From assembly GCA_965645245.1 (NCBI GenBank), contig OZ287081.1, forward strand, positions 1,240,001 through 1,304,000: a stretch of 64,000 nucleotides of DNA, written 5' to 3'. Positions within the stretch are counted from its first letter, which is position 1. The number at the start of each line of letters is the position of its first letter. The DNA comes from Massalongia carnosa. Its lineage: Eukaryota. Under the pieces are notes generated by a model, which saw nothing but the letters and a program-made list of their open reading frames with translations, was not told the DNA's origin and searched no databases. The translations under genes and the position numbers were made by a program. Positions 1,269-46,258 of this stretch are shown here, piece after piece.

Positions 1269-2023
1269 GATTCCCTTTACGTGACGTCCGCCAGCGGAAG
1301 CAACAGGGTATCCCTTTCGCTGGTGATGGGCACCACTATACGGTTGATCCCAGCTTGAAGGCTGGCCTCCTAAGAGGGAAGCTCGTGCCTCGTGGCGTTG
1401 AATTTTGGCGGTGCTGGAATGCTCCGGATGGGAGATTCGCGATCGACTATGATGGAGACGAGAGTATTAGATATTTATGAAGCGAATATGTTCCCTTGGA
1501 TGTTGACTTGTAGAGTATCGATGCTTTCTTCACGCCTTGTCATCTGCCAGTTTTTCGCGACGTTTCAGCTTCTGTGATTGCTTCCTCGCCGTGAGTTATC
1601 TGAAACCGGTTAAACTGGGGGATCCAACGGGGTTTCGAAACTGGCCAACAGGAAGAGAATTTAAATTCACGGCAGACAAGCGCAACGAAACGAAGGTAGA
1701 TGCCAGATACGAAGAACAGGGCAAGTGAGTCTGGGTGGTAAGGAACTGTTGCGTTGAAGGTGGAAGAGGAGGAGGTGCTCTCTGTGCGGGAGATTGAAAG
1801 GGAAGGCGGGAAGATGGGGGAGGAGGTGGGAGGGTGGTGGGATTCACTGATTCACTCCCTCTCTTTCTCTCAACCCAAAATAGAAAAGAGAGTCTTGGCT
1901 CTTGACAAGGATTGCGTCGGTCGCTTAGCAAAAGGTCATGAAGTCTAACCGTTTTTGGTCTGACGAGAGGAACAAGACACCCAATCACCCAATCCGGTAA
2001 GGCAACAGGTACAGAAGTAGTAG

Positions 2024-2084
2024 TACAGAGTACTATACAGAGTACAGAGTACAGAGTACAGACTGCAGAGTACAGACTGCAGAG
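2024..2084. repeat. TA-punctuated 7-bp tandem array (CAGAGTA)n with degenerate copies
   Basis: TACAGAGTA at 2024, 2036, 2043 and 2050, followed by CAGACTG/CAGAG variants. Confidence 0.9.
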
Positions 2085-5540: not shown

Positions 5541-5628
5541 AACGACGACTTGAACGACGACTTGAACGACGACTTGAACGACGACTTGAACGACGACTTG
5601 AACGACGACTTGAACGACGACTTGAACG
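5541..5628. repeat. Perfect 12-bp minisatellite (AACGACGACTTG) x7.3
   Basis: Units start at 5541, 5553, 5565, 5577, 5589, 5601 and 5613, with a partial unit at 5625. Confidence 0.95.
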
Positions 5629-16775: not shown

Positions 16776-18012
16776 CACGCGCGTGACAGAAACAGGCGGA
16801 CACCAAAATAAGCGAATATCATCAAATTTGAACTTACTACCATCTATAAAATAATTACCATCTAGTCATCTTGCCATTCATGTCTAAAACATCATCTATT
16901 CTTTTAGGCATTGGTTCGATCCATTCATTGATCGTTTCCTGAGAAAGACTGACCCAACCCGCCTTAATTGCAGCTATTGTGGTGTCATCATCCCAATGAG
17001 GTTGACGACCTACCCGTTGTTTGGGCACCTGCCAGCAATTTTCGATAGGAGAGAGATCAGGAGAACGAGGGCAGTTGAAGTAGTATTTTAGCCCATGCTC
17101 GTCCTTCCCCGATCCATGTCCTGAATCGCCATCTTCTTCCAACACGAAAATCGGGTCTGTTTCGAGCCATGTTTTTACTACCGGTTCCAGAACGAAGTCA
17201 ATATACACCATCTGACTCATCTTTCCATTCAAATTGCCGGGAACCTCATAAAAAATCAGCTTTGATTTGAAGTTCCACCCCACAGCAGCCCAACAATGAT
17301 ATCGTTTCTGTTTTTTGTCCTTCTCTTCAGGCTCATGTTGTTCCTGAATGCAATCCTGACACGTACGCTCGCCAGGTTTTCGAATGATGCGTAGTCTTCG
17401 TTGAGGTCCTCGTCCGAAATGAACTTCATCGGAAAAGCGAACTCTTTTCCAATCATTCAACGAGTATGTGTTTCGTTTGTTCCAAGCCCAGTCCTTTCGT
17501 GCAATCATCAAATCTTTCGGGACGTAGGTTTTTGTGCGTGCGAGACATTTACGATAGTTTCGTTCATGCATCGCTCGTTGTATAGTACGCCAGGAGACGG
17601 AGGAAGTCTCAGCAGCTGCACCCAGTTGATTCCAGGTCAGTGATCTTCCCTCCAAGCCAGGTTTGCAATATTTCATCCATACGATCTATCTGCTTCTTTG
17701 ACAATTTGCGAGGCTGACCACGAGTCTCCGATTTGTTTGTATGATCATGCCGTCGATTAGTTTCTTGATCGTTGAGTATTTCATAACCTCGAGTATGTCC
17801 CACGCCGAAAAACTCGAAAACCTCTCGCTTTGAACGCAAAATCCCTTTCGCCTTGGTAGGAGTGGTATGCTCAGTATTTATAGTGATTCGTGACTCTAGA
17901 ACAGGCTCCATTGCTTATAAAGAATTGTGTATGTACGATGTAAAAATTAAAAAACTAAGGTGTGGGTGGTGCGGGGAAATTTTGGTGTCCGCCTGTTTCT
18001 GTCACGCGCGTG
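16776..18012 (-). mobile_element. Tc1/mariner-like DNA transposon with 34-bp perfect TIRs and atypical 5-bp TSD (ATTGG)
   Basis: TIR CACGCGCGTGACAGAAACAGGCGGACACCAAAAT at 16776-16809 and its reverse complement at 17979-18012. ATTGG lies directly outside both ends (16771-16775, 18013-18017). Internal transposase. Confidence 0.92.
16855..17911 (-). pseudogene. Tc1-like (DDE) transposase, frameshifted
   Basis: N-terminal ORF with RGQPRKL (GRPR-like linker), a frameshift near 17660, then WKRVRFSDEVHF, FVLEEDGDSGHG, SPDLSPIENCW and MPKRIDDVL..NG.MT.W. Confidence 0.88.
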
Positions 18013-18221
18013 ATTGGTTGGCACATCAAGGTTGTAAGCGAAACTATTGTAGTACCTTGTACGAACACTGTAATAAACCCGCCGTACGCATGTATTTTCT
18101 TAATATACCAGTACACATACTCGAGTAGGTATTTACCCAGATAGGTAATTTATTTCCTTAGTGATACAGCTAAAATATCTGTGTTTTTTAATTACATAAT
18201 ATCAATAATTGATTAAACTTA

Positions 18222-20871
18222 GGCTACGGATAGAAGCACACCCCTTTGGTTACCCACACACCCCCGGTGGTTACCCACACACCCAACCCTAAAGTAGCTT
18301 AAGTTTGAAAAGTTTCTTCGGCCACTTTCCCTTATCGGGTGACCATCTTTCCTAACTAGGGAATTTTGATCCTGCATCTTCATTCTGCGTTTTCCCTGCA
18401 TTGATACCCCGCATTACTGACGCCACGTCGTCATCATGAGTCTTCGTCCTCCAGAAGATGGACAATCCTTCGAATCACTGGATGACCTTGTTATTCGTGT
18501 TAATGAGCATGCCGCCCCACAAGGATATGCCATCGTGTTAAGCCGGACCAAGAAATCGAAACTCGGAATAAGAAGAAAGGCCTGGTTGATTTGTGATCGA
18601 GGAGGAAAGCCCCGAGGTCCTCAGGGACAGGAAAGACGTCATACCAGCAGTAGATGCATAGAATGTCCGTTTCTTCTGACTGCCAAGCGAATGGAAGAAG
18701 ATGGAGGTGCCTGGATTCTGGAGGTGGTAAATGAGGAACATAATCATTCGTCCAGTCTCGCTGGCGCCCATCCGGTTCATAGAAGAATGGCGATGACAGC
18801 AGAAGTGAAAAGTGAGATATCTCGTCAAATTAACAGTGCAAGTAGCACCTTCCAAAGTTTTATCTAGTCTTCGCATTCCTGATCCCACTTTGGGATCAGT
18901 CAACACGGACGATCCGGCCGATCCTCAGATTATTAATCCTCTTTTCAAACCTCGAGATATCTATAATCACAAAGCTCAGATGCGTCGCGACATTCTGGGA
19001 CCGCTTACCCCCGTGCAGGCATTGATTCAAGAGTTGGATCGAGGGCATTGGACATACCACATGCAGAAAGATGAGCTGAATCGCATCACTCATCTCTTCT
19101 TCGTCAGAGAAAGCTCCCAAACTCTTCTGAAGACAAACTATGAGGTGTTGGTAATGGACTGCACCTACAAGACAAATCGATATCGCATGCCTCTTCTTAT
19201 TGTAAGTGGTCAGACCAGTCTGCATACAAATTTCTATGTGGCTTTCTGTTTCATGGCATCAGAAACCACCGCCGATTACACGTGGGTATTGTCTCATCTG
19301 AAGGCATTGTATTTGCAACTCGAACTTCCTGATCCAGTCGTTATCGTCACTGATATGGAACGTGCTTTGATGTCCGCTATTGATCAGACTTTTCCGAACA
19401 CTAATCATCTTCTTTGCATTTGGCACATCAACAACAACATCGTAGCCAGTTGTAAGAAAAGCTTTGATACCAAAGAAGCATGGGATGCCTTCTTTGCTGA
19501 ATGGAAATCCATCGTATACGCCACTACCGAACCGGAATTCTGGCAACTATGGGGGCGGTTTTGTGGTACGATTCCTGGAAATTGCGTGGAGTATATCACC
19601 TCAACTTATTTGTCTTTTCGGCATCATTTCGTCAAATGCTACACTGACAAGATGTTGCATTTTGATACCACGACGACATCTCGAGGTGAAGGCGGTCATG
19701 CAGTTTTGAAACGTCAGCTGGGATCATCGACCGGAGATCTGAAGACGGTGGTGGATGGCATCAACTTACTATTGATCAATGAACTTCACAACTATCTTAT
19801 TACATTCAACGAAGCCAGAGACCGACTTCCCATGGATCTTCGAAAACCAGTGTTTCAGCGATTAACCGGACTCGTCACCCCTCATGCCCTACGAAAGATG
19901 CTTCTTCAGTACAATCTTGTGGTCGGACGACCCATAGTATTGGGGCCTTGCACCCATGCTTACACCATCACAACTGGACTTCCATGTAGTCATAAATCCA
20001 GGAAAGGTTGTATGAGGAAGGAAGTCTGTTGATTGAAGACGTTCATCCACATTGGAGGTAGGTTATTGGATACATTCAGAGTTTCCCTGCGATTACTAAC
20101 TATTGTAGGTTTCAGAGAACCATGCCTGCCAATACGAGGAATGACTTACTATTGGTGCAAGAACCGGAGATGGCAAGAACTCGAGGACGTCCTCAAGGAG
20201 CTGAGAATCTCAACAGAAGGACCATAGCATTTGAGGCCTCTACCAATCGAGTACCTTCTCAATTCGAACGTGTCGAGATGGAGACAGCTGGGATAAACGA
20301 GATAGTCGATCCAGAGGTGGAACGTGTTATACAAAGAGCCGATCCAGCACCCGGAAAACGAGGAAGGCCACGAGGTCGACCCCGAGGTGTAGGAAAAGGG
20401 GCGGGACAAGGTGGAAGAAAGAAACAACCGAAATCAGCTGGCATGGGGGGACAATCAGAATTAGCTGGCACAGGGGGACAATCAGAATTAGCTGGCACGG
20501 GGGGATAATCAGAATCAGCTGGCACGGGATACAGGCCACAGGCGGAGTAGCTAGGCTGCAAAAAGACTGGTCTAATCAAATCGTGGTCTGATTGACGAAG
20601 ATGGTCTCAATCGACTCCGTTTGAAAAAGTTGGGTCAGAGCTGGCAAGGGGTGTACAGCTAGGCACGTGCCAGGTGATTAAGTAAAATATTAGGTAGTGG
20701 GGAAAAGTTTAACGGCTTAACCTAGTTAGGAAAGGTGGTCAGCCAATAAGGGAAAGTGGCCAAAGAAACTTAAGCTACTTTAGGGTAGGGTGTGTGGGTA
20801 ACCACCGGGGGTGTGTGGGTAACCGAGGGGGGTGTGTGGGTAATCAAAGGGGTGTGCTTCTATCCGTACCC
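18222..20871 (+). mobile_element. Mutator-like element (MULE) with ~140-150-bp TIRs and 8-bp TSD
   Basis: Left TIR GGCTACGGATAGAAGCACACCCCTTTG...CCTAACTAGG (18222-18360) matches the inverted right TIR at 20721-20871. TAAACTTA is duplicated at 18214-18221 and 20872-20879. Confidence 0.93.
18436..20508 (+). pseudogene. MULE transposase (FAR1-like Zn domain, DDE domain, SWIM-like CxH, AT-hook) with two 1-bp frameshifts
   Basis: CDRGG...CPF...W...HNH; VMDCTYKTNRYRMPL; VIVTDMERAL; LLCIWHI; SRGEGGH; GLPCSH; KRGRPRGRPRG. Frameshifts near 18828 and 19995; probable intron at ~20058-20108. Confidence 0.88.
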
Positions 20872-21401
20872 TAAACTTATAAATTTTGTGGAATCTTCTT
20901 GGATTTATTAATTATATAAAATTATAAATAGAAAATAGGAAACAATTATCTTTGAAGTTTTCCAAGAATTTACAACAGTACATGAAATCATCTATGTATA
21001 TTATTTATAGAAATACCCGAATATTCGAAAATTTATACCGGGTTACGAACTAGCACTTGGAACGACTTGATGGCATGAGAATTTCCTTATTGGGCAACTT
21101 CATCCATTTCCTTGGATTTCCTGCAGAAGACGATGACGCATAACATACAAAGATGTACCGGTAGGTACCTGATGCTCCTTGTGATCTACTAAAATAAAAA
21201 GCCTCTAATATACCAATAAGACCCCTATTAGTGTAATACAACAAATAACTTACGCGTAGATATGTAGATGTTTTCTTGTTTGCTGTTATTTGCCATTTGC
21301 CTGATTACCTAATTCAAATACCTCCAAATCCCATCACTTCATTTGAGCTTTCATTTCCTGCACTTCTGCAACTTCATCTCAAGGATTCTCTCTTAACTTC
21401 G

Positions 21402-33975: not shown

Positions 33976-34607
33976 CTTTCTGGTGGTATATATAACTTCA
34001 CAAACTCATCTGCAAGAAGCCCTAGAGCCTCCAATGGATTGTTGTGTAAGAGATGTTCATGAGAGGTCAGCTCCTATCCTGTAGAGGAGATGGGCATCAT
34101 GGGCATTTGGGTCTTGAAGCCAACCTCGGCAAAATAACACCGACGTAAACCGACCATTTTTGAAAAGTGGCTGAGGAAACCCCTCGTGCGCCTTTTCCAC
34201 TGCATAGTTATCAGCAGGTATGGCTATATGACTGATCATGACTTAACTAGTACCATTAATCACGAGTTTGCTTGATAGTCTGTGTCCCTAACGAAGCACA
34301 GAATACAGAGTACGACTACTCTCTATACTCTGTACGGATCTACCTACTTCCCCCGCGTATGCAGCTTGCCATCATGACGCGGGGGAACGCCATAGCCGCT
34401 TCGAAAAACCTGAAGTGGAGCCCTCAGGCATCACCCAACCTTCATAATAAAATCCTTATGCAGAATTCTATCCATTGACTTCTTTATAACTTGAGCCTGT
34501 ATAAAAATCTTCGCTCTAAACTATTCTTCGTACTGCACAGAATCTGTTAGCTATTATCTAGACTTTTCCAAGTCATACCCCGTGCCCCCCCCCCAACCAT
34601 CCAAAAT

Positions 34608-36300: not shown

Positions 36301-37194
36301 CGTAGTTTTCCTGGGCCCGGCTCTCGCTGATGCCGGCACTTTCCGACGATGCGGAGGAGAGAGAGATTCCCTTGTGCTTGGGCTTACTTTATATGGCGCT
36401 AGATGCGAGCACGTTGAGCGTTGCCGAGGGCCTTGCTGTAGGCTTGATGAGCCCGTCCCCCTTCGTGGCTTGAATGATGATGCGATCATGAATCATACGA
36501 CAACCCCGTTTAATCACGATCCGGTATGGGCCATATCAAGCATAAAAACTTCATGAGCATACACCATACCATGTCCAGTCGTTCGTGTAAGTATCAACCC
36601 ATGCCATCACAAGATTCTCGCTGGATTTACATCACGATTACGGCGGCTTTCCCAGCCGGCCCCCAACACATAGCATAGCTCAACCTGAAACAAAGGGGCG
36701 ACGACATTGACTTGGGGTTGCTATTGGTTGGATGAGGTATGTAGTTATGTAGGTCGGATCACGAATGCAATGCACGTCATACGATATCAGACCTCGTGGC
36801 AACCAACCATGGAGGAGAAGGCGTGCGTGATCTTCGCAAGCATTCTTGGTGAACGAAGGACGAGAACGGGTAATACTTCGGGACGAATGTATTGTGTATA
36901 GGTATTGTATTGTATTGTATGCTAACACAGTGATGAGGCAGTAGATATTATACATTGCCTTTTTATTAGAAACCAGCCGACACTGATGCTGTATTTTGTA
37001 GCCTTTGTAGGTAGGGAGGTACTTTGTACCGAGTATCTAGATGGACATGGCGTGCTTGGGGTTGCACGTGAGGGAGGATGGAACGTTTTGACACGGTGGC
37101 TTTCAGGGTCAATTCGTCAAAGGTAAGGCAATTTCAAAGGGTGAAGTGACCCGTGTTTCAGAAATATTGGATCAATGAACGATTTCCCTGTTTG

Positions 37195-37260
37195 TAGCCT
37201 TGTAGCCTTGTAGCCTTGTGGCCTTGTGGCCTTGTGGCCTTGTGGCCTTGTGGCCTTGTA
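37195..37260. repeat. 8-bp tandem repeat (T[A/G]GCCTTG) x8
   Basis: Three TAGCCTTG units, five TGGCCTTG units and a closing TA. Confidence 0.9.
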
Positions 37261-37654
37261 GGTGCATTTCATCTGACGAGGCTCCTGGTAAGTCTTTCCG
37301 TGAGGCCACAATGCATCGAACGGCACGAGAGAGACATCAGACAGCTGGAACCCATCGATCTATAAAAGGCTAGCGGTGCAGCAAAATGATAAGATGAGGT
37401 AGTCAAGTCGAAATGAATTGAACGTCACCGTCGACGTTGCGCGCTTGATGATACAAAACTCGACGGGGCGAAGGTCTCGGCGTGCAACAACGAGCCAATG
37501 GAGGGTGAATGATCTCTCATGACACTGAAAGCCATTACTAGCCGCCTTGTAGGGTTTGAAGATGACGGGCACTGGCGTGTCGCGCTATGGGATGGTCACG
37601 ATCTGGCGAGCATAGAGAAGATGAGATGGATCGAGGGGAAGTCTGTTGATGCTT

Positions 37655-37782
37655 TACAGTACAGAGTACGGAGTACGTAGTACAGGGTACGGAGTAGCAC
37701 TTTAGCTATTCCGTACTTTAGGTACTTTGGGTACTTTGGGTACCTTGTACTTTGGGTATGTACTTTGGGTATGTACTTTGGG
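37655..37782. repeat. Compound TA-punctuated array of short heterogeneous spacers
   Basis: TA-CAG-TA-CAGAG-TA-CGGAG-TA-CG-TA-G-TA-CAGGG-TA-CGGAG-TA, then TA-TTCCG-TA-CTTTAGG-TA-CTTTGGG-TA-CTTTGGG-TA-CCTTG-TA-CTTTGGG-TA-TG-TA-CTTTGGG-TA-TG-TA-CTTTGGG. Confidence 0.9.
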
Positions 37783-38943
37783 CACTAACGAGTGGTGGAA
37801 AAGGCGAGGGACGAAAGAAAGTTGGCCCGGCCCTAATTAGGTCCACACAATGATAACCCGCCCCCATCTCAACACTAGACCTAACTTGAGTTACAATTAT
37901 TTTTACATCGTGATGATCGTGGGACTCCTGTAAGTTGTCGTGCTTCTCAGCTTGCCCCGGCACCTGTACTCTGTACTGTGTATGCTGGCTGTGGATGAAA
38001 CGCGCTTTCCCTTCCCGGATTAAACGAGATTGAGCATAATCGGCATTGGCGACCTAGACTAAGGGAACTGAACTCTCAAGGAATACCAGCCTACCAGCCA
38101 CTGAGAATCCGCTCCACCTTCAAACCACCTCATCGTCACTTGTTCCCACCCTCCCATCCCCCTCCCACCATTTCCCCCCCCCCCCTCCCCCCCCCCCGGC
38201 CAGGCCGTACCATCGGCTTCTCGAGGCCTCCTTATCGGCGTCAACTCTTCCTGATGAACGCTCGCCAGCGTCGTTCTTATTCGTCGTAGCCTGTTGACCT
38301 ACTGGGTTCTCCTTTCGTCAATTGGTATCGGTTGACTTTTTTTCCGGTGCGAATCTGTCCTTTGGGCCAAAAGCATTCCCTCAACCATCGACCTCGATTC
38401 ACCGATTTATCGTGAGTGTTGCTTAATTGGTATGTTTGGCATGACGATGGGTCAGCTCTTGGTCGATGCTAATTTTTTGGGGGGTGTAAGTAAACAGAGG
38501 CTAAGATCAATCCCCAACGTCAATTCTTTTCCCTATTCGACGAGTCAACTCAATATTCAATACTCATATGACCTTGCGAGTGTATCTCGTAACAGAAGGT
38601 GACATTCGTTACCGGTGAATCTTCTTGCCTCTTCCGTTGGCAGATACAGCAGGAATTCACCCCTACCACTACCGTCAATCATCGCTACAAACATCCTCGA
38701 AGGCAAACGTGAATCGCCAAGAACATCAAGATCAACATCAACATCTACATCGCGAGTGTAAACAAACAATCGAAGCAGCGCAAACAGCAACATTTGCGTA
38801 AAGACATCGTTGCTCTTCTGCCCTGCCAAAGTACCGTCGTACTTGGAATACTCCTAAATACATTCCCGAAGCATCTATAGCTTAACTTAACGTTCTTAAG
38901 CTAAAGTTTGTGGGCTGCATCTGGCAGACGGCAATCGACTACG

Positions 38944-41900
38944 ATGCAAGTAGCTTCTCAGCATACGCAAGCACCGATTCCAAGCGGTGCATACGGAATA
39001 GATTCGCCCTCCATGTCACGACGTCAATACTCTCAGCAGTCGCCACAACCCGCAGATGTAGATCGATTTCAATCTTCAAGGTCAACAGCCTCGCCGCCGT
39101 CTACTCGGCGACCGTCCAAACGACCAAGCGGCAATGCGACTCAGCCGAATGATCCGGATACATACCAAAAGCTGCCCTATCAGTCTCCTGGAAACTCGCA
39201 TCCCTCGAGCTCTAGCACGCCTCATGTGCAAGACATGTTAGCAACCACCCGCACTTCGCCAATAGCACCCAAAATCGTAGCCTCCCCTTCTCACCAGCAA
39301 ACTCAAAAAGAGCAGCCGGTGCAGCACCGAGAGCAGCCCGGCGGACCCCCTATTCCACCTCCCCCAAGAACATCCTCGAATCAGAGGGGCCAAAATGCAA
39401 ATTTACCTACGAGCGCGCCGTTGACGGATAGAACTGCTGCTTCTCATTCTCGAACTACAACCGTCGATGATCCTCCACCATCACCGTGGACCGCTAACAC
39501 ACGAGATACGCGACAAGACAGAGAGAGACGAACGGCTTTCAGTGGAGATCAGACTAGTGGAGTTGATCAGGAACGAGGGCAGGAGGCACCCACTATATCG
39601 GGGGCGGCGGCTCAGTCACAGCGACGAGGACCGGCATCTCTGGATGGCCCACATCGAGCGGCAAGTACCCGAGAGCCAGGAGCATCGTCACCACCAAACG
39701 CGATGCAAAACCGCTCAGCTTCTCACGTCAGCGTTGTCACACCGTCTGTACGAGGCGGAAATCAGGACAGTCAAATCATCAACCGTGTTGTGGTAACTGA
39801 TCCCGAGATTGATTTAGATCGAGAACAAGAGCGGCAGGCGGAGGCTACACCCGTTCTTGGCCTGGTGGGGAGCGAAGGCGTTGAGGATGGAGCAAGAGCC
39901 ACTGGCAGGAGCAGACAAGATTATTCGGCAAGTGCATCGCGGAGAAAAGAAACAAAGTTTGGTGAATATGTGCTAGGACAGACGTTGGGCGAAGGCGAAT
40001 TTGGCAAAGTAAAGCTAGGATGGAAAAAGGATGGCAGCGTTCAGGTCGCTATCAAGCTCATTAGACGTGAGAGCCTCGGAACTAACCCCAGCCGACTCCC
40101 TAAAATCTATCGGGAAATTTCGATTTTGCAGGAGCTATCCCATCCGAATATCGTCCGTTTGCATGAGATGGCCGAGACGGACCGATATATTGGTATCATA
40201 CTTGAGTACGCGTCCGGTGGAGAGCTATTTGACTTTATCTTGAACCATCGGTATCTGAAAGACAACGCAGCCCGGCGCCTGTTTGCCCAATTAGTCTCTG
40301 GTGTTGGCTATCTCCATAAGAAAGGGATCGTGCACAGGGACCTCAAGCTTGAGAATCTCTTGCTTGATCGGAATCGCAACATTATCATCACTGACTTTGG
40401 GTTCGCTAACACGTTTGATCCTCGCGATGAGTTGAGCGACGAGATTGAGTATAACTTGACGAACCGGGATTTTGTCAAGAGACAGGATCTGGAGCGGGTG
40501 CAGGAGAACGGAAGCAGAAAAGGCGATCTCATGCAAACAAGTTGTGGAAGCCCATGTTACGCCGCTCCTGAGCTGGTTGTTACCGATTCCTTGTACACGG
40601 GCCGAAAGGTCGATGTCTGGAGCTGCGGAGTAATATTGGTAAGGAAATGCTTTAAAAGCAGCAAGCGCAAAGGTTATGGCTAATATATTGGGTAGTATGC
40701 TATGCTCGCTGGATACCTACCATTTGACGATGATCCTGCAAATCCGGAAGGGGACAATATTAATCTTCTGTACAAATACATAGTATCGACACCACTAACA
40801 TTCCCCGAATATGTGACTTATCATGCCCGCGATTTGCTGCGAAGGATTCTGGTTCCGGACCCCCGAAAACGAGCCGACCTGTTCGAGGTCGCTAGGCATA
40901 CCTGGCTGAGCGACTATGCACATGTAGTCTTACATGTTACGAGCAGTACAACAACGATTGGTGAAGTTGCAAACACCACTATTACTTCCGGTATGCATCT
41001 TCGCCCACTTCTCCCTGACCTTGTAACAATAAGAGGTTCCCACTTTTATTCTACTTTCTGGACGGACTTAGCTAATCCATTGCCGATAGACCAACAAGAT
41101 ACGCCCTTACTAGCCCGTAGTGCTTCTGTCCGAGAACCAAGCAAAACTCATGTCCCCAACATGTCTCCTGTTGGCGGACTCACTCATCAAGGTAAAATCG
41201 ATCCGGAGCAATCTGCTGAAAAGCTAAAGCAATCGCGTGATCCCAAGCGACGAACGGTGCAGGTGGAGTATGTTGCACCTCAGTCGAAAACCACAAGGGG
41301 TGACACGACGCCTTCCGTTCAGTCGCCCGTTTCGATGGATTCGCCATCCGCTGTTGGCACTAACTTTTCAAAGACACATGCTAGGGCTGGGACTGAGGCT
41401 TTAGAAAACCTTCCACGCCAAACAAGCACTGCCAATGCAGGTCCCAAGCCTTTTCCTCGTGAACCTGCCGTCATTCAAACCTCTAGATCAAACCGGTATC
41501 AATACCAACCCGTTTCAAGCCGAGTCCCACAAGGGCCGGGCACCTTGCAGCAAGCCATGGCACCACCTCCTCGACCACCCAAGGAGATCCCTCGCTCGGC
41601 TTCGGATTCCAGCAGCGCTTTTATCACATCAACAGTAGCAAGGCCCAATACCAGCGGTTCCATGGCTTCCAGTGGGGCAGGTAGACTTCCTTCTCGGGGC
41701 AACTCATACAGCCAACCTGTAGCCCCCACTCTAGCCGCCACAAACGCACAGGGGCGGCTTGCGCAGCCTAAAAACGGGAAACAATATAACATCTCCGCGC
41801 CTATTCCCCAGCCAGAACCTTACTCTGTAGAGCAGCAATCTATGGGCCGTCCAAGTACCCAACAGAACAATCAAGCATCGTCCCTATCAGCGCAGCGAGA

Positions 41901-42870: not shown

Positions 42871-43537
42871 ATGTTCTTTTAGTTGACATGTTTTTTGGGG
42901 TGAAGGGGAAGGGGTTGGGTTCTCTGGCTTTTGGCTCATTCGCGCGGTTGCACCATGGACTGGAAGGGACTACGGGCTCGGTTACTCTTATCTACCTCAT
43001 TGTAATGTTACTACTTCATGTCGACCAGGGCTTGTTTTCTTGTTTGTTAGTTTTTTTTGATCGCTTGCTCTATTCTGGATATACACTGGAATCCATTGTA
43101 CAGTTTCCGGGGGGCGGGTGAATTGTTGAGTTTTTCTTGCGGCTGAGAGGAACTTGGCAGCGTGTGAATTAAGTAAGGTAATTAGATGGCGGGCGTACCT
43201 CTGTATCCATTCGTCCTTGGGGAGGCTTGCTATCAATCACACCGGGTTTTGGCATGGCCGGACGTGTACTCCATATGAGCGCAGGCTGCATCAAATGTTT
43301 TCTTCACAGTCAGCCAGTTGCGGCAACCATTTAAGTGTTGTTGCGGGGGGGGGATTGCGGTCTGTGGTGGAATGGCCGTATGGGATGAACGGTTTGAGTG
43401 AATAGGGATGGAGTGGCCAATGAGCTCCGACGCAAGGGTCGTTTGTTTCTTCGGCTCTTCTACGGAGGGATTACGTCCTTTTTGGTGCGATCCCGAAGAA
43501 CGTTTTCCCTTTTGTTTGTTGAGGTACTCTGTATGTA

Positions 43538-45256
43538 CGGAGGTTGACACGAAAAGTCCTTGGTAGCGTGCATTAGTGCTGTTTTATCGTCATGTAGAAA
43601 GAACGCTAACAATTCAATAGGGGTTTCTTATATATATTATACACTTTGACCTATGCAGCATCTTTTATTTATCAAATATCATCAAGTAAAATTTTATATG
43701 CTTCAAATCATGACATCACGAACTCAGAACAATAGTCTGACCATTGGTCAAAATTTACAAGCATTGTCTTTGATTGAACATGGCATAACAGCCAAAGTCG
43801 TTCAAGCAGTCACCGGAGTCTCCATTCAGTCTATCAGCTATCTCAAACGCAAGGCACGAGATCGAGGATATGATCCCACTGTTTCGCGAATACTGAAGGT
43901 AGAATACGTGCGAGATGCACCTCGTTCAGGATGTCCTCTCAAAGTGACGCCTGAGATAGAACAGGCCATTTTAAATAACGTTCGTCATGATCGAAATAGT
44001 AGAAGAAAATCTTCAGCCGTTTTGGAATATGAACACGAAGTTTCATCTACAACTTTCCTCAATGTTCTTCGACGCAATAATTTTCGTTCCTGCAAAACTA
44101 CTATGAAACCGGGCCTTGATTCAGCAATGAAAGAAGCTCGATTGCAATTTTGTTTGCGCTATCGTCACTGGGCTCTCGATGATTGGAAGAATGTTATATG
44201 GAGCGATGAAACCAGTGTCGTGTTGGGCTCTCGACGAGGACGAAGACTTCAATGGCGAACTCCAAACGAAAAATATGCTCAAACATGCATCCGACGTAGA
44301 TGGAAAGGATGTTCCGAGTTCATGTTTTGGGGTTCTTTTTCGTATGAAAAGAAAGGTCCTTTTCATATATGGAAGCCGGAGACAGCAGCAGAAAAACACG
44401 GCACTCAAAAAGGAATTGACAAAATCAATGAGGCACTGGAGCCTCTAGCGAAAGAAAACTGGGAATTGGAAACGGGGATGAAACGAATGGGACTGCGTAC
44501 CAAAGGAGGCCGAAAACCAGCCTGGAGATGGGACGAAAAGCATGGAAAAGTGGTCCGAAAAGGCAAAAGAGGCATCGACTGGTATCGTTATCAAAAGATC
44601 ATTCTTCTTTCCAAACTTCTACCGTTTGCCAAAGAATGTATGAAAGATCGTCTCGATACTATTGTACAGGAGGACAAGGCTCCCAGTCATGCTTCTAAAC
44701 ATCAAGACCTCGTCTTTATGGATGCAGGAGTCTTGCGTTTATTGTGGCCGGGTAATTCTCCCGATTTGAACATGATCGAGCAATGTTGGTCCTGGATGAA
44801 AAGAAAAACCACACGAAAAGGAGCACCTCGAAATCGCATAACGGCTACCAAAACATGGACTCAGTGTTGGACAAAAAGTCTGAAACAAAAACAGATTCAG
44901 CACTGGATAGAACGAATTCCACGACATATAGAGGAAGTCATCGCTTTGAATGGAGGAAATGAGTATCGAGAGGGTCGAGACAATGGTGTGATTCGACCAT
45001 ATAATACCGAAGATCGTCGCATTCGTTATTGTAAAGACATTATATCTGATGACAGTGATGTAGATTGATGATGTCATAAGTTTGTATGTAGGCCTGATTT
45101 TTAATGCATTATATCGTTTGAAAATGAGGTTGATGTACTTCGTAGAAAATACTGTGGTAGAGACGATAAATCAAATATAGAAAAGGGGCAGTGGCGCTAC
45201 GCTAAATCCTTAGTGTCATTATTAGCGCATCCAAGGACTTTTCGTGTCAACCTCCG
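43538..45256 (+). mobile_element. Tc1/mariner DD34E transposon, full length, TA TSD
   Basis: 26-bp perfect TIR CGGAGGTTGACACGAAAAGTCCTTGG at 43538-43563 and inverted at 45231-45256, with TA on both sides. Confidence 0.95.
43710..45068 (+). CDS. Tc1-like DD34E transposase, uninterrupted ORF
   Basis: PRSGCP linker, VIWSDET (D1), VQEDKAPSH (D2), WPGNSPDLNMIE (E), with 34 residues between D2 and E. In-frame upstream ATGs exist from 43653. Confidence 0.92.
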   Translation: MTSRTQNNSLTIGQNLQALSLIEHGITAKVVQAVTGVSIQSISYLKRKARDRGYDPTVSRILKVEYVRDAPRSGCPLKVTPEIEQAILNNVRHDRNSRRKSSAVLEYEHEVSSTTFLNVLRRNNFRSCKTTMKPGLDSAMKEARLQFCLRYRHWALDDWKNVIWSDETSVVLGSRRGRRLQWRTPNEKYAQTCIRRRWKGCSEFMFWGSFSYEKKGPFHIWKPETAAEKHGTQKGIDKINEALEPLAKENWELETGMKRMGLRTKGGRKPAWRWDEKHGKVVRKGKRGIDWYRYQKIILLSKLLPFAKECMKDRLDTIVQEDKAPSHASKHQDLVFMDAGVLRLLWPGNSPDLNMIEQCWSWMKRKTTRKGAPRNRITATKTWTQCWTKSLKQKQIQHWIERIPRHIEEVIALNGGNEYREGRDNGVIRPYNTEDRRIRYCKDIISDDSDVD

Positions 45257-46258
45257 TACTCTGTACGTATGATGACGGTATGATGACATCCCACCCTCCG
45301 GCAGCTACCGCGGTTAGGCTAAAGATATATCTAGAGCCCTATTAGGTTTAGCCTGATGGTGGAATGTGGGGTAGCGTAATCTCTAAGTAATGAAACGAAA
45401 CGGAAGGGTTGATACGAGTAAAGTACCGAGTATTACCTCCGCACGCTGTTGAATATGGAGACATACAAAGGTACCTACCTACCTACCTATGAACTATGCC
45501 TCAGCGGTGTCCTCTCTGACCTCATCGCATTCAAGAGACCTCTATACTCGCGCAATCAGTCAGACTGATTGGGGGAGTCTTACCTGCTTGGACCCAGTGT
45601 GGATGTAAGCTTGGTAACTACCACATCATGGCCCTCGAGTCTGCTCGACCCAATGCATGGTCTCTATTCTCCGGCAGATGCACCCAACCCGTCAAGGGCA
45701 TCCTTCCCTGGTTCATGAACTAGCACCGAAGCCAAGGTTCAGGTGTAAGTAGCCCCTCTTCTGTATGCCCGTGGAGCTCCAAATCCCTCGTTCCTCGTCC
45801 CTTCGTCCCCTCCTTCTCTCGTCTCCTCGTGCATCTATCGGGACAAAGCGCCGGTTCTGTACAGGCTCGACTTCCTGCTTGCAGGCTGATCCTTCCCGTC
45901 GAGCCCTTTTTTCATATGCGAAATGCTGCGGGACTTGTCCAGGCACGAGATGGAACGCGCCTTTCCGATTAACGTTAATACCTACCTCGCTGCACGACGT
46001 CAAGCGAGGAAGGAGGATCGCTGGGAGAGCTTCGTCATAGCTGGAGGGTGCTGGTCCTAAGGCCGAGGTTTGCGATCCGCTGGACTTAAGATGGACGCCC
46101 TCCTTCGGATCTTTGAGTACGTATTTCTCTGCTCTTCCACGGCGTCGAATTTCCTTCGCGCCTTTGAGATTGCTCCACTGGGCAGCGCCCTCTATACCCT
46201 TTTCGTTTTCTTATATCTTTTAGGCTGGCTGAGGCTACGCCCCGCACGAGGATCAATC

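Follow-up and report, generated by a model that had tools for sequence, protein, structure and literature searches.

Excision of Tc1/mariner transposons produces 3' overhangs that are repaired by end joining, as described in the available text of PMC3878927, PMC12255080 and PMC2874221. In the available parts of PMC3878927 and PMC12255080, these overhangs measure 2-3 nt, with 2 nt for Tc1 and Tc3 and 3 nt for mariner and Sleeping Beauty, and the scar left by Sleeping Beauty is TA-CAG-TA (available text of PMC12255080, PMC2874221 and PMC3878927). Tandem repeats born from transposable elements derive from internal sequence of the element in the accessible sections of PMC6947457, and the MuTAnT MULEs, in those of PMC4486113, target TA microsatellites that pre-exist as targets. 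In our literature search, we found no link between excision scars and the birth of microsatellites. Minos reportedly leaves 4 nt, and to our knowledge Tc1/mariner footprints do not pile up into arrays.

Here, we describe a short tract in which such a pile-up had been suspected, located at positions 37655-37782 of the window, by which we mean the whole stretch of DNA analysed (64 kb). It resembles Tc1/mariner footprints in that a TA duplication is kept on either side of a few terminal transposon bases, and, like the Sleeping Beauty scar, it opens with TA-CAG-TA. Unlike the Tc1/mariner footprints in the available text of PMC3878927 and PMC12255080, where 2-3 nt are kept, the retained piece here apparently comprises 5 nt (7 bp added). 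With the cases in the accessible sections of PMC6947457 and PMC4486113, the locus shares an element that prefers a simple repeat and, probably, a DNA transposon that is causally tied to a short tandem repeat; in contrast to them, the repeat unit here would be the excision scar itself. The coordinates of all relevant features are collected in Table 1.

Table 1. The tract, its arrays, the Tc1-like element and related words in the window.
Feature	Position	Strand	Basis or extent
Second large like array, (AGTACAG)9.3 with a 14-mer higher-order variant	2009..2084	+	TRF
TA-CAGAG-TA words (TACAGAGTA[C])	2024-2056, 7468, 7516, 8461, 13457, 15080, 15121, 34304, 34326, 37660, 37967, 41821, 43525, 45257, 63395		12 loci
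Dispersed inverted pair TACAGAGTA ... TACTCTGTA	34304..34334	.	
Array A, 7-bp periodic TA-C[A/G]G[A/G]G units	37655..37701	+	TRF, TA splitting, word search
Palindromic junction, 13-bp stem GGTACGGAGTAGC / GCTATTCCGTACT, 6-nt loop	37686..37717	.	DNA fold, centroid hairpin
Array B, GTACTTTGG 9-mers passing into GTACTTTGGGTAT 13-mers	37713..37782	+	TRF
Short (AGTACAG)2.7 array, 180 bp downstream of the tract, opposite orientation	37964..37982	-	TRF, word search
Left half of landing tract, GTACTCTGTATG + TA; TA 43536-43537 is the target-site duplication	43522..43537	+	
Tc1-like (DD34E) transposon, 1719 bp	43538..45256	+	TIRs, TA duplications, transposase ORF, read depth
TIRs, starting CGGAGG	43538-43568 / 45226-45256		inverted repeat scan, TIR HMM
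Right half of landing tract, TA + CTCTGTACGTAT; TA 45257-45258 is the target-site duplication	45257..45270	+	

The tract occupies the space between two ORFs, some 1.1 kb upstream of one that has a protein-kinase domain, and no Rfam family matched the region 36500-39000. The initial annotation had described it as a series of TA dinucleotides alternating with nine kinds of spacers in an irregular order that slippage would explain poorly. Its letters are indeed as they had been read (coordinates checked), and all nine spacer kinds are present; cutting the tract at TA yields 20 spacers, and these include five kinds that had been omitted, namely G, GCACTT, GC, CTT and GG. TA dinucleotides are dense here, at 20 per 128 bp compared with a window mean of 6.38 (sd 3.27), yet this alone does not set the tract apart, as AT-rich stretches of the window reach 23. 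The exceptional feature of the tract is instead GTAC, which occurs 12 times per 128 bp, the maximum of the window, against a mean of 0.42 (sd 0.81). Nor is the order of the spacers irregular, given that TRF resolves the tract into repeats with periods of 7, 9 and 13 bp (scores 50-77). The tract is thus a short tandem repeat of compound type, built around GTAC and situated in an intergenic region of an ascomycete that occurs in lichen-type samples. A further simple repeat, (TTGTGGCC)8.5, is found at 37192-37259, about 400 bp upstream.

In its first half, array A, the period is 7 bp (TRF, 37658-37696, 5.6 copies, 0 indels, consensus AGTACGG). Read in this register, the sequence runs TACAG, TACAGAG, TACGGAG, TACGTAG, TACAGGG, TACGGAG, followed by a decayed unit, so that the apparent spacers 'CG' and 'G' merge into one unit, TACGTAG, which carries a G-to-T change. 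All five full 7-mer units point in one orientation.

The second half, array B, has the overall form of a GTACTTTGG[GTAT] array of 9/13 bp. Here, TRF reports a period of 9 at 37713-37758 (unit GTACTTTGG, score 64) and a period of 13 at 37731-37782 (unit GTACTTTGGGTAT, 3.8 copies, 92% matches, score 77), and the spacer 'TG' is part of the 13-mer. Its five CTTTGGG units share one orientation, and a search of the window finds them in the tract alone. We detected no link between array B and any TE end. We read it as an ordinary slippage-grown minisatellite, not built from transposon ends, and it possibly began from the local word ACTTTAG. The unit GTACTTTGG resembles the conserved inner word of the TIRs described below (reverse complement ACTTTTG[G]), with one T fewer; this may be a coincidence, and we judged the resemblance too weak to build on. 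The word GTACTTT is also present in the flanks of two metagenomic relatives of the element (L018 and L075).

Arrays A and B are separated by a palindromic junction, at which the orientation of the units flips from CGGAG to TTCCG. Its predicted fold has a minimum free energy of -20.8, compared to -9.97 (sd 2.22) in shuffled sequences (z -4.88).

Five public runs cover this stretch, of which we compared four (X1, X2, X3 and X5). X2 and X3 are identical to the window, and X5 consists of identical pieces at low depth. X1 differs from the window at 21 listed sites outside the element, a divergence of about 0.27%, and two of its SNPs fall within the tract, 37697 G>C, which converts GTAG into GTAC, and 37713 G>A, both inside the stem of the junction. 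In array B, the X1 contig jumps back from 37780 to 37760 across 16 intervening letters, which amounts to 36 extra letters; this contig was built from k-mers (de Bruijn) and folds back at a palindromic repeat, so the precise layout of array B in X1 is uncertain. In array A, the four runs, three of which have the same sequence as the window, show one SNP (in X1) and no gain or loss of units. Likewise, no element-occupied or empty allele was seen at the TAs of the tract among the best-supported rows of these four runs, three of them the same as the window. The constant period, the uniform orientation, the 11- and 13-bp block repeats and the length difference between strains in array B are marks of slippage in the arrays. 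The strict periodicity and the 13-mer higher-order units, together with this orientation and length difference, speak against the earlier view that slippage is a poor explanation.

The transposon to which the tract had been related lies at 43538. Its 34-nt TIR arms are 94% complementary, and no gaps are needed to align them with the TIRs of 27 relatives; beyond its two ends, the TIR HMM (E<0.001) gave no hits in the window. The transposase ORF at 43710-45068 is intact, encodes 452 aa and contains the Pfam domains HTH_Tnp_Tc3_2 (1.7e-9) and DDE_3 (3.1e-9). In an alignment of 16 sequences, D166, D322 and E357 are invariant, with the 34 residues between D322 and E357 that define DD34E spacing; judging from their position, these three would be the catalytic residues. 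Among 490 transposase homologues are fungal proteins named Tc1. With the Tc1-like DD34E transposons of fungi (Pyrenophora tritici-repentis 'Tc1'; Paecilomyces, Fusarium, Cladobotryum), the element shares 49-52% transposase identity, the HTH_Tnp_Tc3_2 and DDE_3 domains, TA duplication and TIRs of the 30-110-nt class. TA duplication, TIRs and an HTH + DDE transposase together make it a member of the Tc1-like DD34E group. In the public runs, its read depth is 20-98x that of its flanks, a value that is not a copy number but implies that the element is multi-copy.

Two properties connect this element to the tract. The first concerns its ends: as had been noted, CGGAG corresponds to its first 5 nt and TTCCG is one transition away from its last 5 nt, and prefixing TA to those first 5 nt yields exactly the array A unit TACGGAG. 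TRF lists seven period-7 arrays in the window, one with the unit TACGGAG itself and two that are one transition off. As 7-mers fall into about 1170 rotation/strand classes, we calculate a chance of about 0.006 for an exact match among seven arrays, so this identity in sequence is unlikely to be fortuitous. The other property is its site. The element occupies a TA of a GTACTCTG tract, which would be an 11-mer x2 if the element were removed, and its flanks show that its landing site was a tract with the same vocabulary as that at 37655-37782. Its TA borders a TA-CTCTG-TA word, and only 34 of the 3096 TA sites in the window (1.1%) border such TA-CAGAG-TA words.

A third observation comes from the element copies in the public runs, for which 12 indels are listed. 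Eleven affect single letters; the sole multi-letter one is an insertion of TACGGAG behind 43639, inside the element, in one contig each of X2, X3 and X5, known from the aligner's table and not from the contig letters themselves. It sits at a TA in an AT-rich stretch that offers no local template for slippage. As X2, X3 and X5 apparently represent the same genome, we count it as one locus.

To these observations, relatives of the element add a wider sample. An exact 22-nt TIR pattern had 0 matches in metagenome contigs, and an alignment-based scan of such contigs yielded 80 loci (L001-L080, 191 kb). An inverted repeat of at least 16 nt was present in 38 of the 80; we kept the 27 in which this repeat is the family TIR and dropped the 11 in which the best repeat is not (L012, L017, L021, L029, L030, L046, L052, L058, L060, L070 and L073). 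The remaining 42 loci, mostly short contigs, have no repeat pair. All 27 clean-TIR relatives begin with TA|C[G/A][G/A]A, and their gap-free alignment reads TA-CGGAGG-N8-CAAAAGT. Their terminus variants are CAGAGG (L003), CGGAAG, CGGATG and CGAAG, and TTCCG is the 3' end of the CGGAA-type elements L013 and L075. Across 78 HMM-defined ends, TA precedes the terminus in every case (78/78).

These relatives reveal a target preference. Including the window copy (n=28), G stands before the left TA in 16 of 28 (p 1.5e-4), C follows the right TA in 19 of 28 (p 1.2e-6), and both hold for 10 of 28; the clade thus prefers G|TA|C targets, which makes GTAC arrays natural landing pads. Together with the position of the window copy in such a tract, this supports the idea of a landing pad that the initial annotation had put forward. 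For the fungal Tc1 clade, the available text of PMC2836289 contains no description that we found of the conserved terminus TA|CGGAGG-N8-CAAAAGT, the G|TA|C preference or the footprint length.

The flanks of the relatives also contain words that match their own termini, defined here as TA-N5-TA with N5 at most one mismatch from the terminal 5-mer of the respective element. Four such words share the TA of the element, compared to 0.27 in random-5-mer controls (0 of 2000 controls reach 4); exact words anywhere in the flanks number 3 versus 0.33 (8 of 2000 controls reach 3), and at the 78 HMM-defined ends there are 5 versus 0.35 (2 of 3000 controls reach 5). A stricter control compared all 28 pairs of C-NNN-G words; here CGGAG/CTCCG comes out on top with 5 adjacent words, followed by near neighbours with 4 and unrelated pairs with 0-2, so that we regard the enrichment as moderate, not overwhelming. 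The direct TA-Nx-TA flanks at these 78 ends comprise 10 with N5, 8 with N2, 3 each with N3 and N4, and 2 with N6.

Individual loci illustrate the pattern. L006 reads TA-CGGAA-TA[element]TA-CGGAG-TA-C, a two-unit heptamer array with the element at its middle TA; L033, not part of the sets used for counting, reads [element]TA-CA-TA-CGGAG-TA; and L075, with the terminus CGGAA, has two non-tandem TA-CGGAA-TA words and one TA-CGGAG-TA within 110 bp. In all three, the local word matches the local terminus variant. TA-CG-TA directly flanks L024 and L035 and would fit a 2-nt footprint. Two further observations, both based on small numbers, may represent scars: an inverted pair TA-CTTCG-TA / TA-CGAAG-TA in the flank of L018 (2860-2910), which corresponds to the terminus of another subfamily, and two internal TA-CGAAG-TA words at 210 and 699 of L026, an element with the terminus CGAAG.

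All word statistics refer to the 64-kb window and to the 191 kb of unrelated metagenome loci. In the window, we compared TA-N(1-7)-TA words with 60 third-order Markov simulations, in none of which any spacer occurred more than 4 times. The count that had been suggested as a genome-wide check, applied here to the window, singled out one enriched spacer: TA-CAGAG-TA, with 18 words at 12 loci against 0.32 expected, is the sole outlier. The motif heads the lists of 8-, 9- and 10-mers of the window by number of loci, and TACAGAGTAC is the most dispersed over-represented 10-mer (10 loci, 0.12 expected). The element predicted to go with it did not turn up, as inverted-repeat, paired-end and TIR HMM scans of the window found no CAGAG-ended or other TA-flanked TE, solo TIR or MITE. 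TA-flanked CGGAG occurs twice in the window, both times in the tract, while the dispersed word is CAGAG (18); as TA-flanked words, CTTTGGG, CCTTG, CAGGG and TTCCG are likewise confined to the tract. Inverted pairs of TACAGAGTA lie 22-48 bp apart, mostly between ORFs (34304/34326, 15080/15121 and 7468/7516).

Around the 18 TACAGAGTA words, the flanks agree only in a weak CAG on the upstream side and a C on the downstream side. They share no extended consensus, so these words are not TE ends, and the copy at 41821 falls within an open 724-aa ORF, which excludes it as a 7-bp scar. The dispersed word may derive from decayed arrays, from a protein-binding site or from scars of a sister family with CAGAG ends. 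CpG decay of CGGAG is a weak candidate source of CAGAG, given an observed/expected CpG ratio of 0.92 in the window.

Weighing these data, we see an even chance that the first half of the tract was seeded by scars of Tc1-family excision and then grew by slippage, with the second half being a plain minisatellite. Under such a scenario, a Tc1-like family would insert preferentially at G|TA|C, and its excision would leave TA, five terminal nucleotides and TA, adding 7 bp where the canonical footprint has 2-3 nt. Because C is the first and G the last letter of the retained 5-mer, the scar would recreate GTAC-type targets, and re-insertion would be drawn to it. Above all, the scar would provide a 7-bp proto-repeat, open to copying in one orientation by replication slippage or unequal exchange, whereupon point substitutions would diversify the units from CGGAG to CAGAG, CGTAG and CAGGG. 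From the periodicity, the ends and the target sites described above, we infer that these words were born by excision, that the stagger is 5 nt and that events followed this order. Several observations argue against scar seeding: the variant units CAGAG, CGTAG and CAGGG are not the chimeras expected from heteroduplex repair of CGGAG/CTCCG, the dispersed word is CAGAG rather than CGGAG, array A showed no gain of units in the four runs, and the overhangs given in the available reviews measure 2-3 nt, not 5. The initial annotation had invoked staggers of 5-7 nt. A footprint longer than 2-3 nt is consistent with TA+CGGAG+TA in the tract, the TACGGAG indel and the own-terminus words at relatives; staggers of 7 nt find no counterpart in our data. 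The more general proposal of a transposon-driven microsatellite origin is retained in the same restricted manner: the 7-mer part was probably seeded by scars, its growth is attributable to slippage, and array B is without a link to TE ends.

The simplest competing account holds that the tract is a compound micro- or minisatellite whose GTAC-containing 7-, 9- and 13-mers arose by slippage or unequal exchange alone, and that the identity of unit and terminus reflects coincidence or the taste of the element for GTAC. We consider this rather unlikely, although it deals well with much of what we observed: array A is strictly periodic without indels, array B contains higher-order 13-mers and differs in length in X1, the units are uniformly oriented, like arrays exist at 2022-2084 and 37964-37982, and a G|TA|C preference alone would steer insertions into GTAC arrays. 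It is less well equipped to account for a unit that equals TA plus the terminal 5-mer, given the low chance of such a match among seven period-7 arrays, or for the recurrence of this pairing in other genomes with the matching terminus variant (CGGAG in L006, CGGAA in L075, CGGAG in L033). Likewise, the TACGGAG insertion in the element copies is non-tandem, with neighbours that offer no slippage template, and the isolated single TA-CAGAG-TA words are not arrays. It is these dispersed words that lend some appeal to a different explanation, in which [G]TACAGAGTAC and its GTAC-cored relatives are protein-binding sites in promoters and the tract is an expanded cluster of them upstream of the kinase gene. 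Their dispersal and their location mostly between ORFs, often as inverted pairs, speak for it, their missing extended flank consensus would suit a short site, and about one locus in every 5 kb would be a high density for fixed excision scars. The motif, however, is bounded precisely by TA...TA, its flanks have the G/C bias seen at the transposon target, and neither the identity of the CGGAG units with a TE terminus nor the indel inside TE copies is explained in this way. Moreover, the 191 kb of fungal-type metagenome loci contain a single TA-CAGAG-TA, which makes a conserved site unlikely, and we know of no fungal factor with a TACAGAGTAC site. We therefore regard a binding-site cluster as improbable.

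The original proposal was bolder, in that the whole 128 bp would be a tape of independent footprints from serial visits by several Tc1/mariner families, with staggers of up to 5-7 nt. It shares the evidence for a TE-end origin of CGGAG, and two more spacers equal terminus variants of relatives, CAGAG in L003 and TTCCG, as a 3' end, in L013 and L075; these relatives stem from other sources, and neither terminus is resident in the window. CG, in turn, is the terminal dinucleotide of the family, with TA-CG-TA next to L024 and L035. Thus, the expectation that each spacer equals the terminus of a resident element holds for CGGAG (twice) and CG, but CTTTGGG, CCTTG, CAGGG, GCACTT, CTT, GG and GC match no terminus that we found. 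In particular, the window contains no TEs with CTTTGGG, CCTTG or CAGGG ends, and CCTTG and CAGGG are TA-flanked in the tract only. CTTTGGG is not palindrome-compatible with a TIR and occurs five times, in one orientation and solely in the tract, and the 13-mer block (CTTTGGG + TG), repeated 3.8 times, would require one pair of events to recur several times in an unchanged order. In array A, five 7-mer units from independent scars would all point in one orientation in just 1 of 16 cases under unbiased repair, and a single substitution in a 7-mer accounts for 'CG' + 'G'. The periodic blocks, their single orientation and the lack of matching TE ends in the window speak against serial visits by several families, and we consider a tape of this kind very improbable.

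Returning to scars that seed an array and slippage that extends it, a broader generalization can be formulated, which we put forward tentatively and with more doubt than confidence. A widespread fungal Tc1 (DD34E) clade with conserved TA|CGGAGG ends would cut 5 nt inside its ends and produce 7-bp scars that rebuild its preferred G|TA|C targets. Scars and re-insertions would thereby gather at the same sites, where slippage would generate heptamer microsatellites, and TA-CAGAG-TA / TA-CGGAG-TA would thereby have become the most over-represented short word here. If the mechanism outlined for the tract holds, the range of cleavage staggers in Tc1/mariner elements would extend from 2-3 nt (reportedly 4 nt for Minos) to 5 nt, a fungal Tc1 clade would have a defined GTAC target preference, and cut-and-paste transposons would both seed microsatellites and create their own landing pads. 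If the mechanism fails, the tract would be an ordinary compound microsatellite in a promoter region. Given its intact ORF and near-perfect TIRs, the element makes the footprint length directly testable.

Two further transposons with inverted repeats are located in the window. The first is a 1237-bp element at 16776-18012 with perfect 34-nt TIRs starting CACGCGCGTG and a 276-aa ORF with a DDE_3 domain. ATTGG borders it at either end, apparently as a 5-bp duplication, which is unusual for a DDE_3 element. The second, at 18214-20879, is a Mutator-like element with TIRs of about 150 nt, composed of 21-bp subrepeats (GGGTGTGTGGGTAACC...) and with GGTACGGATAG near the end; its ORF at 18809-20032 encodes a MULE transposase domain, and a 27-mer x3.6 repeat lies inside the Mutator-like element at 20432-20528. 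At 5541-5628, there is a perfect (AACGACGACTTG)7.3 array, and the other simple repeats of the window include C24 tracts, for example at 38174-38197.
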